Below are positions 28,640 through 32,179 of a stretch of 64,000 nucleotides of DNA, piece by piece. The stretch covers positions 69,324 through 133,323 of the forward strand of contig CAMMDS010000001.1 of assembly GCA_946495655.1 (NCBI GenBank). Reading direction: 5' to 3'. A program made the translations under genes and the position numbers. The notes beneath the pieces were generated by a model. The model was not told where the DNA came from, made no database searches, and worked only from the letters and a program-made list of their open reading frames with translations. Numbering within the stretch: the stretch's first letter is position 1; every line of letters starts with the position of its first letter. Source of the stretch: an uncultured Clostridium sp. (lineage in GTDB: Bacteria; Bacillota; Clostridia; TANB77; CAG-508).

Positions 28640-29329
28640 TTATCTTTCAATGAATTTATCTTCTCTGTCAAGCATTTCTTTTAAATTTTTCTTTAAATTT
28701 TGAAAGCTATTACCTGTTTTACCATAATACATAAAGTGCTTACTTGCCAATATACTAGCTGTTTTTCCATTTAATTCAATCTCTGCATAAGGATTTAATT
28801 TTTCTATTTCATCCATTTTATCATTATCTGAAAAATATCTTACATTATTTCCATCCATCAATTTTCTAAATGTTTCTACTGTTAAAGCACCATGTAATAT
28901 TATTACAGATGGTTTAAACTCTCTAATTACATTATCAAATACTTGAAGACTTTTTGATAATATCTTTTTATCAACTTTCTTTAATTCTTTTATGTTTTTT
29001 GTAGGATATGTAAAAATGTCTGTCTCTATCATGTATGTTCCCAATTCTCTTTCTGCCCATTCAGCAAATGATATAATACCCATTCTTGTTCTAGATATTG
29101 CTGTCTTCCCATTCTTTACTCTATTCTCTTTGTAAAATTTCATAAATGCTGCATAATTATTATACAATTTTATATATTCTTCTTTATTTATCTGTTCAGG
29201 ATAGATTGGTGTTGCTGGATTCGTTCCGACAAAACAAATTTTAGCTTTGTATGGATTCCCATTACAAATATATGGTCTTAAATATGGATGTCCTTGTCCT
29301 ACATATATATCTTTAAATTTCTCTTGCAC
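28640..29329 (-). CDS. Uracil-DNA-glycosylase-superfamily-like protein (putative DNA glycosylase, specificity unknown)
   Basis: The order of elements matches the UDG fold. KICFVGTNPA corresponds to motif A GxNPG/GEAPG. It is followed by MIETDIFTYP, VIILHG, and ASKHFMYYG in the position of the HPS motif B. This is pattern recognition only. Confidence 0.4.
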   Translation of the reverse strand: MQEKFKDIYVGQGHPYLRPYICNGNPYKAKICFVGTNPATPIYPEQINKEEYIKLYNNYAAFMKFYKENRVKNGKTAISRTRMGIISFAEWAERELGTYMIETDIFTYPTKNIKELKKVDKKILSKSLQVFDNVIREFKPSVIILHGALTVETFRKLMDGNNVRYFSDNDKMDEIEKLNPYAEIELNGKTASILASKHFMYYGKTGNSFQNLKKNLKEMLDREDKFIER

Positions 29330-29993
29330 TATTTTTTTGATCCTTTCCTTTTGACATTTTTTTATTAAATAAATTTATAATATGTTCTACTGTTTCTTCT
29401 GTAACTTCTTTTTCTGACAAATTACCATTAACTCTAACAATTGGATATTTTTCTTGTGTTAAATTTCTTAAATATTTTTCCCTTATTCTCTTTAATTTTT
29501 CTGCAGTTTCATATGGTGCTATCTCTTTTCCTCTATTTTTTATTCTTTTAACAGCTTCATCTACGCTTACATCTAAATATATCCCTAAGTCTGGTTTTGG
29601 CAAAATATCTAAAAGCTTGTCCATATGTTCAAGTCCTTGTTCTTCTAGACTTGAATATATTTTATTACACAAACAATATCTATCTAATATTACAACATTT
29701 CCTTTTTCTAATTCTGGAACTACTCGCGTTAAAGTATTATTAATCAAATCATTTCTCCATACAATGCTTCTTAATCTAGATGAATATACCTCTCTTCTTG
29801 TTTTATGTTGCATCTCTGCTGTTTCTTCTAATTCTTTTGTAAAAATAGAATTATCAAATATGCTCATAGTCTTTAACCTAGATATATTTTTTCCGTATCT
29901 TTTTATATTGTTAATTAAAGTTGTTTTACCTGCTCCATCAATTCCCATTACAACAATTAGAATTCCATTCGTATTATCTTTTATATTATGCAT
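29313..29993 (-). CDS. Thymidylate-kinase-family dNMP kinase
   Basis: GIDGAGKTT P-loop, LDRY (DRY/F motif) and a LID-like RIKNRGKE. It overlaps both neighbours. Confidence 0.75.
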   Translation of the reverse strand: MHNIKDNTNGILIVVMGIDGAGKTTLINNIKRYGKNISRLKTMSIFDNSIFTKELEETAEMQHKTRREVYSSRLRSIVWRNDLINNTLTRVVPELEKGNVVILDRYCLCNKIYSSLEEQGLEHMDKLLDILPKPDLGIYLDVSVDEAVKRIKNRGKEIAPYETAEKLKRIREKYLRNLTQEKYPIVRVNGNLSEKEVTEETVEHIINLFNKKMSKGKDQKNSAREI

Positions 29994-30846
29994 ATTTTTT
30001 CCTATTGTATTTAATTAATTCATTTATTAGGAATTGAAAGTAATCATCTTGATTTTCATCATAAATTTCAAGATTCTTTCTCAACTTTTCTTCCATTTTA
30101 ATAAGTCTATTTATTTGATATTCTATATTTTCTTTTGGCATTTCTGCCATTATATTTTCCTCAGGATTTTCTACTTCAGATGCTTTCACTATTTTCTGTC
30201 TATCCTTCTCATAAAAATGCATACTATTTACATGATGTGTATATGTTCCTATATTAATATTCAACAAACTAACAATATATTCCTGCCACATCGTAAAATT
30301 AAATACATCATATGGTAACCCTAGATATAAATCATTAGATCTCATGTTAGTAAACATATCTAATTTATTATCCCTTATCATGAATTGTAATTCTAGTGTA
30401 CATGGTATATCATTACTATCTAAGCCTACATCTTTTTTATCATAAATTGGAATTACTGCTCTACGTGTATTTTTGTCTTCTTCTAGTAAATTTATTATTT
30501 TTTTAATATTACTTTTTATTCTTGGTCCATATGCTCCATTTAATTTAGCACCATCATCTGAGTATTTGTTATAACTTGGTGCATAATATTGTATTACATT
30601 TAAGTCATTGCTTCCAGACATACACCATAGCCATTCTCCAATTGCAAAGGATAAAGAAACGTTTCTAACATTTTTATTAAGAATCCTAGTTCTTGGATTC
30701 AATATCTTTAATGTTACTCCTCTTATTTCAGTCGTTGGCATGTGCCTTGGTGATACTAGTTCCCCATTTTCCAACAAATATTTGCATAGTTTTATGTATA
30801 TACTACTAAATCCTTCTTCTTCAATATACATTTTACTATCTCTCAC
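29986..30846 (-). CDS. Thymidylate-synthase-superfamily enzyme of the deoxycytidylate hydroxymethylase/methylase type
   Basis: The catalytic Cys is in IPCTLELQFMIRD. NMRSNDLYLGLPYD carries Asp where ThyA has the dUMP-specifying Asn. GEWLW is also present. Confidence 0.7.
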   Translation of the reverse strand: MRDSKMYIEEEGFSSIYIKLCKYLLENGELVSPRHMPTTEIRGVTLKILNPRTRILNKNVRNVSLSFAIGEWLWCMSGSNDLNVIQYYAPSYNKYSDDGAKLNGAYGPRIKSNIKKIINLLEEDKNTRRAVIPIYDKKDVGLDSNDIPCTLELQFMIRDNKLDMFTNMRSNDLYLGLPYDVFNFTMWQEYIVSLLNINIGTYTHHVNSMHFYEKDRQKIVKASEVENPEENIMAEMPKENIEYQINRLIKMEEKLRKNLEIYDENQDDYFQFLINELIKYNRKKYA

Positions 30847-31753
30847 TTTCCAAAAAATTATTACAAAACTCTAAACAATTTATTCTTCCGTCTATCATTT
30901 CCTTTAGTGCTTTATTTTCAATTTTCCCTAAAAGTCTAATTGGAAAACTACTTTGTACATAGTATGATAATAAATTAGTAAAAATTAAGTTATTATCATA
31001 TTTTTCTAAATCCGAAAAACTATTATATACTTGTAAAAACCTCTTTACATTATGCAAATCATAATTTGATATTAGCATTGCTGCACATCCTATTTCAAAT
31101 AGCAAATCTCCTTTTGACACAAAATCAAAATCAATAAAATATACTTTGTTATTTTGAGGTATAATATTGCTCAATCTTATATCTCCATGAATCACTTGAT
31201 AAATTTGTGGTTTATATTCGCAATGATATTTTTCTAAGTATTTTAATCTTGTACTCAACAATATTTTTAGTGAATTTTTTACTTCTTTTTCTACATTTTC
31301 TTCATCTAATATTTTAAAGTTGTACAAAATCTCTTTCTTAATATCATCAAAGCTTTTACTCTTTTTCTCAAATTTATACTCATCTTGATTAAATTGTTTA
31401 AATTCTTTATGCATCTTGAACAATTCTCTGGCCACTTCTTCAATAATATCAATTCTAGATTCTTCGGATTTTACAAAATCTTGAATACAATAAAGTTGAT
31501 TATCATATTTAGACACAATTTGTTTTTCATTATTTAATATAATATTTGGTGCAATTCCTAGCATATCATGTACTCTTTTTTGGGTCTTTATTGATGCTAA
31601 AATTTGTTTTTCTTCATCAATATTGTAGATTTTTACAACATACTTATTATCTATCAAATATATATCATTTATTGTTTTCTCTTTTATTTTTTTCATTGTA
31701 GTAACTTTTAATTCTTTATAATTCTGTTTAATATTTTCTATTAATTTTTCCAT
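30836..31753 (-). CDS. APH/choline-kinase-family phosphotransferase (protein-kinase-like fold)
   Basis: The Brenner motif is VIHGDIRLSNII, followed by YFIDFDF. Confidence 0.7.
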   Translation of the reverse strand: MEKLIENIKQNYKELKVTTMKKIKEKTINDIYLIDNKYVVKIYNIDEEKQILASIKTQKRVHDMLGIAPNIILNNEKQIVSKYDNQLYCIQDFVKSEESRIDIIEEVARELFKMHKEFKQFNQDEYKFEKKSKSFDDIKKEILYNFKILDEENVEKEVKNSLKILLSTRLKYLEKYHCEYKPQIYQVIHGDIRLSNIIPQNNKVYFIDFDFVSKGDLLFEIGCAAMLISNYDLHNVKRFLQVYNSFSDLEKYDNNLIFTNLLSYYVQSSFPIRLLGKIENKALKEMIDGRINCLEFCNNFLESER

Positions 31754-31761
31754 TCTTGCAC

Positions 31762-32079
31762 CTACTTATCTATCTTAACTGTATGTCCATATCTTTTTGC
31801 ATTTAACTCTTCCTTTGTCCTAAAACATTTCTCCAAATCTATGTCATATGTATTTGCTATAACTGCTATATAATATAAAACGTCTGAGATTTCTTCTTCT
31901 ATTGTTCCTTTTATGTTGTCGCCATCCATTCTATTATTTTTTCTGATAGCTTCAGCTAATTCTCCTACTTCTTCAATTAGTTTTAAGAAATACCTTTGTG
32001 TATTTTTTAAATCTTCTGGTTTACTTATCTTATACTTTTCATATAAGTAATCTTGTAATCTTCTTAATGTTAAGCTCAT
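31762..32079 (-). CDS. MazG-like nucleoside triphosphate pyrophosphohydrolase (single-domain)
   Basis: The metal-binding motifs EEVGELAEA (ExxE) and EEEISDVLYY (ExxD) are intact. I place the start at MSLTLRRLQ (32079), which has GGAGGTG upstream. The ORF track starts at 32121. Confidence 0.75.
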   Translation of the reverse strand: MSLTLRRLQDYLYEKYKISKPEDLKNTQRYFLKLIEEVGELAEAIRKNNRMDGDNIKGTIEEEISDVLYYIAVIANTYDIDLEKCFRTKEELNAKRYGHTVKIDK

Positions 32080-32179
32080 ACTATCACCTCCTAGTTTTAT
32101 ATTAGCATCCTGTTGTTGCAAAATTTGTCGAAATTTGTTATTATATATATTTTTTTGTTATTTTTTAGTAAAAATATAT

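Follow-up and report, generated by a model that had tools for sequence, protein, structure and literature searches.

What might a bacterium, or an element residing in it, do with a set of genes resembling the apparatus by which T-even phages make their modified cytosine? The question is raised by a 64,000-nt stretch of DNA from an uncultured Clostridium sp. (GenBank assembly GCA_946495655.1, contig CAMMDS010000001.1, positions 69,324 to 133,323), hereafter called the window, in which a serine-recombinase element of 5,765 bp splits the gene of a penicillin-binding protein (PBP) and carries, at window positions 28640-32121 on the minus strand, a cassette of five genes; these encode a MazG-type pyrophosphohydrolase, an APH/ChoK-fold kinase, a homolog of thymidylate synthase (ThyA), a Tmk-family kinase, and a protein, here called X, with the predicted fold of uracil-DNA glycosylases (UDGs). 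The answer comes in two parts of unequal firmness. Judged from their sequences, the enzymes should divert deoxycytidine triphosphate (dCTP) into 5-hydroxymethyl-deoxycytidine (hm-dC) nucleotides, and they are paired with a putative glycosylase of a new UDG-fold family; as to the purpose, the reading that we favour, tentatively and with considerable doubt, is a conflict or defence system which feeds 5-hydroxymethylcytosine (5hmC) into DNA and excises it again with a glycosylase like those of the Brig type.

A preliminary description of the locus had reported five co-oriented genes with overlapping or nearly abutting start and stop codons, which was confirmed: a gap of 8 nt separates the genes for MazG and the APH-fold kinase, and is followed by overlaps of 11 (APH/ThyA), 8 (ThyA/Tmk), and 17 nt (Tmk/X). 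Its five family assignments stand as well, four of them (MazG, APH, ThyA, Tmk) by profile matches and that of X by structure prediction, and the motifs are found in the translations (EEVGE...EISD, HGDIRLSN/IDFD, PYDVFNF, GIDGAGKTT/DRY, and VGTNPA/HFMYYG, in gene order). Of the overall interpretation offered there, the biochemical logic has gained support while the biological function is unproven. No published description of the five-gene cassette was found.

The ThyA homolog is the enzyme from which most can be read. It falls below the curated cutoffs of all seven NCBIfam ThyA models (29-72 bits vs cutoffs of 108-427; the best score is 71.8 bits, with a cutoff of 174.55), and among proteins of solved structure MilA, a CMP 5-hydroxymethylase, is by far the nearest to it (1.4e-39). 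Rules linking single residues to specificity have been published for the ThyA superfamily (PMC13326640, PMC5175136), and by these the protein carries the full signature of a dCMP hydroxymethylase. The catalytic nucleophile, Cys149, aligns with the Cys of T4 gp42; Asp180, at the position of E. coli Asn177 and aligned with an Asp of T4 gp42, is the cytosine-type residue that the preliminary description had pointed out and goes with a cytosine substrate (PMC13326640); Asp146, three residues before the catalytic Cys and at the position of E. coli Leu143, goes with a hydroxymethyl instead of a methyl product (PMC13326640). Asp172, in the sequence MRSND, corresponds to E. coli Asp169; its retention rules out a flavin-dependent 5-hydroxy-dCMP synthase. 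Arg128 and Ser170 occupy the positions of MilA Lys133 and Ala176, favouring a deoxyribose over a ribose substrate (PMC5175136) and ruling out a ribonucleotide (CMP) hydroxymethylase, and the two Asp at the Asn177 and Leu143 positions rule out a dTMP synthase.

These residues bear directly on the plainest explanation, according to which housekeeping genes of thymidylate synthesis and uracil avoidance (a dUTPase-like MazG, ThyA, Tmk, and UDG) came to lie on the element by chance. The four functions would indeed be coherent as a set that excludes uracil from DNA, and the Tmk-like kinase passes the cutoff of the dTMP kinase model, if barely (89.1 vs 83.25 bits); however, the ThyA homolog scores far from any such cutoff, dTMP formation is not expected with Asp at both positions, and the genes are carried about by recombinase elements and a plasmid, so that this explanation is hardly credible.

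The enzymes before and after the putative hydroxymethylase fit its presumed substrate and product. The MazG-type protein probably converts dCTP to dCMP, as suggested by its family and by its closest solved relatives, which are the integron iMazG (2q73/2q5z, 4e-17) and then dCTP pyrophosphatase 1 (6e-5); it is 70-77% identical across the other cassettes, and the gene caller's alternative start at 32079 would give a protein of 105 aa. The ThyA homolog, with its six diagnostic residues of a meaning established by experiment in other enzymes, would then form 5-hydroxymethyl-dCMP (hm-dCMP), and the Tmk-like kinase probably phosphorylates this to hm-dCDP; the kinase matches the dTMP kinase model TIGR00041 over its full length, which is a marginal pass and silent on the preferred deoxynucleoside monophosphate, as well as PHROG 761 (4.6e-32) and the PADLOC candidate PDC-M51B (1.3e-16). 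A nucleoside diphosphate kinase of the host, or possibly the APH-fold kinase, would make hm-dCTP. Analogy lends good support to the steps from dCTP via dCMP and hm-dCMP to hm-dCDP, on which all serious readings of the cassette agree; the readings diverge on the roles of X and of the APH-fold kinase.

The analogy is to T4, as had been proposed at the outset: the three activities of gp56, gp42, and gp1 have their counterparts in the MazG, ThyA, and Tmk homologs. The three-step logic is shared, gp42 is homologous to the cassette enzyme and shares its catalytic Cys and its Asp at the two specificity positions, and an all-alpha MazG-type pyrophosphatase is common to both. In contrast to T4, the kinase of the cassette belongs to the Tmk family and is analogous to gp1 but not of the gp1 type, an APH-fold kinase and a UDG-fold protein are added, and the whole is carried on a bacterial recombinase element which, in the window, has no polymerase, glucosyltransferase, or virion genes.

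Protein X has no match in Pfam (including the UDG family PF03167), NCBIfam, PHROGs, or PADLOC, and its matches to UDP-GlcNAc epimerases in single-sequence and profile searches of the PDB proved spurious. An AlphaFold2 model built on 24 homologs (pLDDT 84.6) places it in the UDG superfamily: Foldseek returned the family-4 UDG 4zby (E = 1e-7), followed by 1ui0, UdgX, and TDG, at probability 1.0 and TM-scores of 0.48-0.61, and also UDG domains of phages. One remote member of the X family, P0281, passes the Pfam model PF03167 (27.1 vs 24.3 bits). In the model, motif A follows the strand 29-35 and motif B the strand 189-196, an assignment made by position in the fold and not by superposition. A HMMER scan of 1.84 billion proteins yielded 313 representatives of relatives of X; in 116 full-length ones Asn37-Pro38, His198, and Arg18/Arg82 are conserved (Asn37 in 104, His198 in 93). 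Position 104, after strand 2, is Asn in 90 and Asp in 18 of the 116, and Asp in all Clostridial cassette copies covering that residue; by its place in the fold it would be the counterpart of the uracil-reading Asn of classical UDGs. In UNG, Asn-to-Asp mutants have linked an acidic residue at the uracil-reading position with a cytosine-type base, and the 5hmC glycosylase Brig3, described below, requires Asp127; both suggest that the acidic residue 104 of X reads a cytosine-type base. The base type of the hydroxymethylase and position 104 of X do not co-vary, since next to a hydroxymethylase of the cytosine type Bacillus phage G has a UDG, and Brevibacillus an X, of the Asn type. X appears to found an undescribed family of the UDG superfamily, which has about 300 representatives and switches between Asn, Asp, and Glu at the presumed base-reading position; the Brig proteins were compared by their published description, and no chain of Brig3 was among the matches of the sequence and fold searches of the PDB.

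Are the five genes a unit? The survey of gene neighborhoods that the preliminary description had called for found all five genes, their order unchanged, in no fewer than six further distinct loci, with 43-77% amino acid identity. In several uncultured Clostridia (loci L004, L014, L015) the cassette has smpB on one side and the suf operon on the other and is not accompanied by a recombinase, and in related species (L012, L013) it adjoins murE. In L043/L044 (about 6815-16918) it resides in another serine-recombinase element, about 9.6 kb long, which splits a gene of the EPSP-synthase family (MurA/AroA-like) and also holds two unknown proteins besides a Bro-N protein. A core in the order APH, hydroxymethylase, NUDIX, Tmk, X is present in Geobacillus thermodenitrificans on the conjugative plasmid pGeo12a (L048) and in Brevibacillus panacihumi on the chromosome (L025). 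Hence the cassette is carried by two distinct serine-recombinase elements, each interrupting a different gene, and by a conjugative plasmid. The replacement of MazG by a NUDIX protein in the Bacilli, a non-orthologous displacement, indicates that hydrolysis of the nucleoside triphosphate to the monophosphate is required. Wherever X is a separate gene, the stop codon of tmk overlaps its start, by 8-17 nt, in all stand-alone cassettes examined (the window, L004, L013, L025, L043, and L048), and the two genes are predicted to be translationally coupled there. The gene of the APH-fold kinase stands directly upstream of that of the hydroxymethylase, overlapping or closely abutting, in every cassette found.

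Variants occur in which further genes are drawn in. In L038-L040 the order is HAD, X fused to a HAD domain of the Cof/S6PP type, GT2 glycosyltransferase, Tmk, a MazG-like protein, APH, and hydroxymethylase; X at first seemed absent there and was found as the HAD fusion, which in L038 is separated from Tmk by the GT2 gene. In L013, X is followed by a GT8 glycosyltransferase, a histidine phosphatase, and a GT2 glycosyltransferase. On pGeo12a (L048, 4063-16676) and in Brevibacillus the core forms part of a conserved cluster, some 13 kb long, whose other members are a second ThyA homolog, a QueA-like protein, two or three PqqD-like proteins, a decarboxylase dependent on pyridoxal phosphate (PLP), a CYTH protein, a CPBP protease, and an ABC exporter. 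This cluster has the look of an undescribed biosynthetic or hypermodification cluster.

Rough ratios of nonsynonymous to synonymous substitution (dN/dS), determined against four loci, are 0.19-0.44 for APH, ThyA, Tmk, and X, and 0.01-0.15 for MazG, with synonymous sites near saturation and the value of 0.01 for MazG stemming from a comparison in which dS is saturated; they point to purifying selection on all five genes. It had been considered before that the cassette is a leftover nucleotide module of a decayed hypermodifying phage, that is, an inert prophage remnant with no present function. A phage-type integrase (PHROG 95) is part of the element, the hydroxymethylase has phage relatives, and known gene-intervening elements are often degenerate prophages. 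The proposal has nevertheless lost ground and must now be seen as very improbable: the five ORFs are intact and under selection in four independent comparisons, gene order and the coupling of starts and stops are kept from Clostridia to Geobacillus, across genera, with MazG replaced in the process, and the APH-fold kinase and X have no relatives in INPHARED (tblastn) or in IMG/VR, the latter scanned by short patterns only. By comparison of the loci, then, the five genes behave as one conserved mobile operon, and neither chance, housekeeping, nor decay accounts for them.

What the operon would do at the level of DNA can be put together from the predicted activities. DNA made while it is active would gain 5hmC; X, by base-flipping and by means of an Asn-Pro motif as found in MUG/TDG/SMUG and Brig3, would remove the cytosine-type base; and the DNA of an invader replicating in bulk would become riddled with abasic sites, whereas the sparse lesions of the host would be repaired. 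Alternatively, the APH-fold kinase may phosphorylate the 5-hydroxymethyl group. A more specific version, in which the system is self-contained, with hm-dCTP marking whatever DNA is replicated in the infected cell and the Brig-like glycosylase turning the mark into lethal abasic sites, has a low chance of being right; if true, it would extend glycosylase immunity to phages with ordinary DNA, and a host that makes the target modification of its own effector would be a new principle of defence.

Why should X act on DNA? To our knowledge, all characterised UDG-fold enzymes do. Further, relatives of X, 49% identical and with the same invariant residues, occur without the partners in defence-type contexts. 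About two thirds of the retrieved X loci lack the other four cassette genes; among these, X stands next to a type I restriction-modification system and Tn7-like tnsABCD (L026), to tnsABC (L017, L018), to a PLD nuclease, a helicase, and a Mu-like transposase (L021), to a giant FtsK/HerA-type ATPase (L024), or, in others, to tyrosine integrases. Finally, Brig3 has exactly the activity required, and a known defence operon, DS-4, places enzymes of hydroxymethyl-pyrimidine synthesis in defence.

Brig1, Brig2, and Brig3 are UDG-superfamily enzymes that defend bacteria by excising modified bases of phages (PMC11078745; bioRxiv 10.1101/2025.10.29.685425; bioRxiv 10.64898/2026.02.25.707755). Brig3 is a 5hmC glycosylase which requires Asn50 and Asp127 (its functional residues are Asn50, Glu55, Trp100, Asp127, and Asn225), and its operon has an ADP-ribosylglycohydrolase (ARH) as neighbor. 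Besides the predicted fold, X has Asn37-Pro38, which resembles Asn50-Pro51 of Brig3, and Glu102-Thr-Asp104, which resembles His125-x-Asp127, as compared by published residues and without an alignment. Relatives of X, too, are found as single genes in defence islands and mobile elements, and both Brig3 and some X have ARH neighbors. Unlike the cassette, Brig genes come without linked enzymes for making the base that is attacked.

DS-4 (also "NTTI"), predicted by DefensePredictor and experimentally validated in E. coli, comprises a ThyA homolog, a deoxynucleoside monophosphate kinase, a base hypermodification protein, a TIR protein, and a hypothetical protein (PMC13092281). Its mechanism is unknown; MazG, kinase, and UDG domains are combined in further systems which the same study predicts but did not validate (PMC13092281). 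The cassette shares with it a hydroxymethylase-like enzyme of the ThyA family, 30% identical to that of the window (E = 3e-24), and a nucleotide kinase. In contrast, the DS-4 enzyme has Asn at the base-specificity position and is thus of the uracil type, the operon has a protein of the 5-hmdU-kinase/hypermodification kind and a TIR protein, and MazG, the APH-fold kinase, and any recognisable protein of the UDG fold are missing from it; neither a TIR nor a 5-hmdU-kinase-like domain was detected in the window cassette with Pfam and PADLOC. Homology of X to the fifth gene of DS-4 (WP_047174762.1), for which the motifs RHFYYFG and KHFMYYG might be taken as a hint, was rejected, as hhalign gave a probability of only 20%.

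A number of points weigh against excision from DNA as the purpose. Constitutive synthesis and excision of 5hmC should harm the DNA of the host, and no sensor or regulator was identified; the APH-fold kinase has no assigned role in the proposal; and Glu55 of Brig3 is without an obvious counterpart in X. Position 104 is only loosely tied to the cassette, X of Brevibacillus having Asn beside a cytosine-type hydroxymethylase and forms with Asp or Glu occurring also alone. X is found fused to the HAD phosphatase domain of the Cof/S6PP type and to an ARH, and in phage G a UDG domain is fused to a nucleoside monophosphate kinase, fusions which a mononucleotide substrate would fit better than DNA. The core in Geobacillus and Brevibacillus lies in a biosynthetic-looking cluster (PqqD, CPBP, ABC exporter), and the glycosyltransferases and phosphatases of other variants are not needed for marking and excising.

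Several of these points would find their place in a pathway for a small molecule, which was not among the four roles considered in the preliminary description and whose product may be a building block, an antimetabolite, or a signal, with dCMP as the scaffold. MazG would supply dCMP, the ThyA homolog would hydroxymethylate it, the APH-fold and Tmk-like kinases would phosphorylate the product (e.g., at 5-CH2OH), and X would be a nucleotide N-glycosidase releasing a base derived from 5-hydroxymethylcytosine, or its pyrophosphate. Such a pathway is a serious contender, though we hold it to be unlikely. MilA is the nearest characterised enzyme, and hydroxymethylase and N-glycosidase are an established pair (PMC5175136, PMC4081090): in mildiomycin (MilA/MilB) and bacimethrin (BcmA/BcmB) synthesis, as conceivably in the cassette, a hydroxymethylase is joined by an enzyme cleaving the N-glycosidic bond. 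Embedding of the core in the exporter-bearing 13-kb cluster of pGeo12a and Brevibacillus, the fusions of X with HAD and, in phage G, of kinase with UDG, and the pairs of glycosyltransferase and phosphatase beside some cassettes, which resemble pathways of glycoside phosphates, argue in the same direction, and the adjacencies of APH with hydroxymethylase and of Tmk with X would fit a reaction order of hydroxymethylase, APH, Tmk, and X. However, MilA and BcmA have Lys133/Ala176 and prefer CMP, whereas the enzyme of the window has the Arg/Ser signature of deoxynucleotide enzymes making DNA precursors; MilB and BcmB are not UDG-fold proteins, and no ORF of the element matches an N-glycosidase of their type in a Pfam profile search; and a methyltransferase or a ThiD-type kinase, as in the mildiomycin and bacimethrin pathways, is missing from the window cassette. 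The Tmk-like kinase aligns over its full length with dTMP kinase and above the curated cutoff, and the Clostridial cassettes are devoid of exporter or tailoring genes. The solitary relatives of X in defence islands and in a housekeeping operon, invariant residues included, sit where the substrate of such a pathway would be absent. Also, we know of no UDG-superfamily enzyme that acts on free nucleotides.

A third possible use is the modification of self DNA. Here a captured hypermodification module of the phage type would introduce 5hmC into host or element DNA as a shield against nucleases or a mark of self; in the variants 5hmC would then be glycosylated or otherwise derivatised, with X as an enzyme of hygiene or processing, and the APH-fold kinase would activate 5hmC much as the 5-hmdU DNA kinase does in thymidine hypermodification. 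The nearest phage relatives of the hydroxymethylase, about 40% identical, are those of Lactobacillus phage ATCCB, Enterococcus phage Planchet, and Bacillus phage G, and all three adjoin DNA glycosyltransferases, in keeping with the assignment of the cassette enzyme as a dCMP hydroxymethylase. In phage G, gp315 (L047, 4468-5463), annotated as thymidylate kinase, consists of a nucleoside monophosphate kinase and a family-4-like UDG domain (PF03167, 1.5e-12) and is encoded at a distance of four genes from gp319, the hydroxymethylase of the cytosine type, with an alpha-glucosyltransferase and a HAD hydrolase nearby; pairing of kinase and UDG is therefore a feature of phages as well. The region gp310-gp319 thus shares with the cassette a cytosine-type hydroxymethylase (38-40% identical) and a kinase joined to a UDG domain, and, with the bacterial variants L013 and L038, a nearby glycosyltransferase and HAD phosphatase; it differs in that its UDG is family-4-like with Asn as base-reading residue and has no detectable sequence similarity to X, and in that an APH-fold kinase is lacking. 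The same set of components, the GT2/GT8 glycosyltransferases and HAD or histidine phosphatases of the bacterial variants, and the PLP decarboxylase of the cluster in the Bacilli, which recalls thymidine hypermodification, all speak for self-modification. Yet a dedicated polymerase is lacking, as is any way of keeping dCTP out entirely, a glycosylase of the Asp type reading cytosine would endanger self DNA marked with 5hmC, and the APH-fold kinase and X are without relatives in the two phage collections. We know of no bacterial chromosome with 5hmC introduced before replication. On the whole, self-modification appears distinctly improbable.

Excision of 5hmC fed into DNA stays our preferred, if tentative, reading. 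So far, pre-replicative synthesis of 5hmC has been seen as an invention of phages, and defence glycosylases of the UDG fold as single genes directed against phage modifications; one bacterial operon holding both would mean that bacteria or their mobile elements make 5hmC nucleotides, be it as a poison for invaders, a mark of self, or a metabolite. Independent of the reading, the cassette supplies an uncharacterised kinase of the small-molecule type that is tied to hydroxymethyl-pyrimidine chemistry. What is new is the combination: a predicted pathway to hm-dC of the phage kind, a putative glycosylase resembling the Brig type, an operon resembling DS-4, and a gene-intervening element.

As for that element (Table 1), its seven ORFs are the five cassette genes, a large serine recombinase of 565 aa, and a 53-aa ORF of the DUF6870 family, and profile searches with Pfam, NCBIfam, and PHROG models found no structural phage or replication genes among them. 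The preliminary description, which had placed the cassette on a 5.8-kb recombinase element devoid of phage structural genes and inserted in a cell-division or sporulation gene, was correct in this respect.

Table 1. Features of the element and of the gene it interrupts (positions in the window)
Feature	Position	Strand	Remarks
PBP, detached C-terminal PASTA part	26497..26781	-	94 codons; PF03793; TIGR02214 positions 542-632
Right junction core GGAGGTG	26784..26790	-	adjoins PASTA fragment of PBP gene
Large serine recombinase	26830..28527	-	565 aa; Resolvase, Recombinase, and Zn_ribbon_recom domains; PHROG 95 integrase, 6e-98
Protein X (predicted UDG fold)	28640..29329	-	motif A G35-T-N37-P38-A39; E102-T-D104; motif B H198-F-M-Y-Y-G
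Tmk-family deoxynucleoside monophosphate kinase	29313..29993	-	PF02223, 1.6e-22; P-loop GIDGAGKTT, DRY
ThyA-superfamily enzyme	29986..30846	-	PF00303, 5.5e-23; PHROG 5131, 2.7e-55
APH/ChoK-fold kinase	30836..31753	-	PF01636, 2e-11; catalytic HGDIRLSN and IDFD intact
MazG-type all-alpha NTP pyrophosphohydrolase	31762..32121	-	PF03819, 5e-11
DUF6870 ORF, 53 aa	32180..32341	-	first gene, at upstream end of element; PF21757, 3.7e-7
PBP, N-terminal part	32511..34451	-	646 codons; dimerisation and transpeptidase domains intact; PF03717, PF00905; TIGR02214 positions 4-539
Left junction core GGAGGTG	32549..32555	-	end of transpeptidase part of PBP gene

The gene interrupted is that of a class B PBP within the dcw cluster of a low-GC Firmicute, which runs on the minus strand (mraZ, rsmH, ftsL, class B PBP, murE, mraY). 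When the two cores are joined in silico, a single uninterrupted PBP of 729 aa results, with its sole stop at the end, which spans the SpoVD model TIGR02214 (636 positions) continuously from 4 to 632. This model is the top one for the rebuilt protein, yet the score of 571 bits is below its curated cutoff of 688, for which reason we speak of a SpoVD-like PBP and not of SpoVD; the gene could be that of a division PBP of the dcw cluster instead of a sporulation-specific SpoVD. The coding sequence is split, a large serine recombinase is terminal, the short cores are identical, and the frame is restored; the element is thus of the gene-intervening type, and precise excision restores the SpoVD-like PBP. 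The arrangement is unchanged in L001, a metagenome assembly made independently from this organism and 99.6% identical.

With skin in sigK, SPbeta in spsM, gin in gerE, and yin in yabG, the element shares a serine recombinase splitting a coding sequence, identical short junction cores, and restoration of the frame on precise excision, and like gin (PMC5595907) it is small and not of prophage size. It differs from them in its target, a SpoVD-like PBP of the dcw cluster of which only the PASTA domain is detached, and in its cargo, a nucleotide-modification operon. Neither spoVD nor a SpoVD-like PBP is named as a target of intervening elements in the excerpts of literature retrieved, and the gene is apparently a new target. 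Since the transpeptidase domain is whole in the truncated protein, the gene may function without excision, and excision during development is not a given. The insertion (window 32511-32555 and 26784-26830) separates the PASTA domain alone, and the truncated ORF stops 11 codons beyond the junction.

The DUF6870 ORF is kept in L001 and L002; that it encodes a regulator or a recombination directionality factor is a guess, and no literature on the family was found. A promoter scan of the element gave results no better than those for shuffled sequence.

The APH-fold kinase belongs to a narrow family (36 clusters); its NCBIfam matches (homoserine kinase, CotS, ThiK) are weak and do not discriminate, and a sequence search of the PDB gave no relative. 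A homolog with 46% identity is encoded in L041/L042 (8001-8939), with no gene for ThyA, Tmk, or X, and adjoins genes for flavodoxin-like and carboxymuconolactone-decarboxylase-like proteins, which indicates that the kinase family is not exclusive to the cassette.

Protein X, too, has settings of its own. In an abundant gut lineage (L008-L011, 10001-10684) it stands alone between ybeY-dgkA and era-recO, in the operon position which in B. subtilis is occupied by cdd. In Ectobacillus, X is fused to an ARH, and in Alicyclobacillus an ARH, a protein of 259 aa, and X follow one another (L030, 8570-10639; L031; L034, 8115-10648; L045, 7045-8783). The pair of ARH and 259-aa protein also occurs without X, beside a NrtR-like NUDIX regulator, and a link of X to the Brig3 operon is therefore unproven. 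The 259-aa protein was considered as a BapA-like ASCH protein but had no Pfam match at E values up to 5, and its AlphaFold model reached a pLDDT of only 50.6.

Elsewhere in the dcw cluster, rsmH is broken by a one-base frameshift near 35990-35996 into two pieces (35966-36136 and 35119-36009, minus strand); the upstream frame terminates with DGTLRRSRS, while the following frame has FGGAGHS, the motif for binding S-adenosylmethionine. The frameshift is identical in the independent assembly L001, which makes a sequencing error unlikely.

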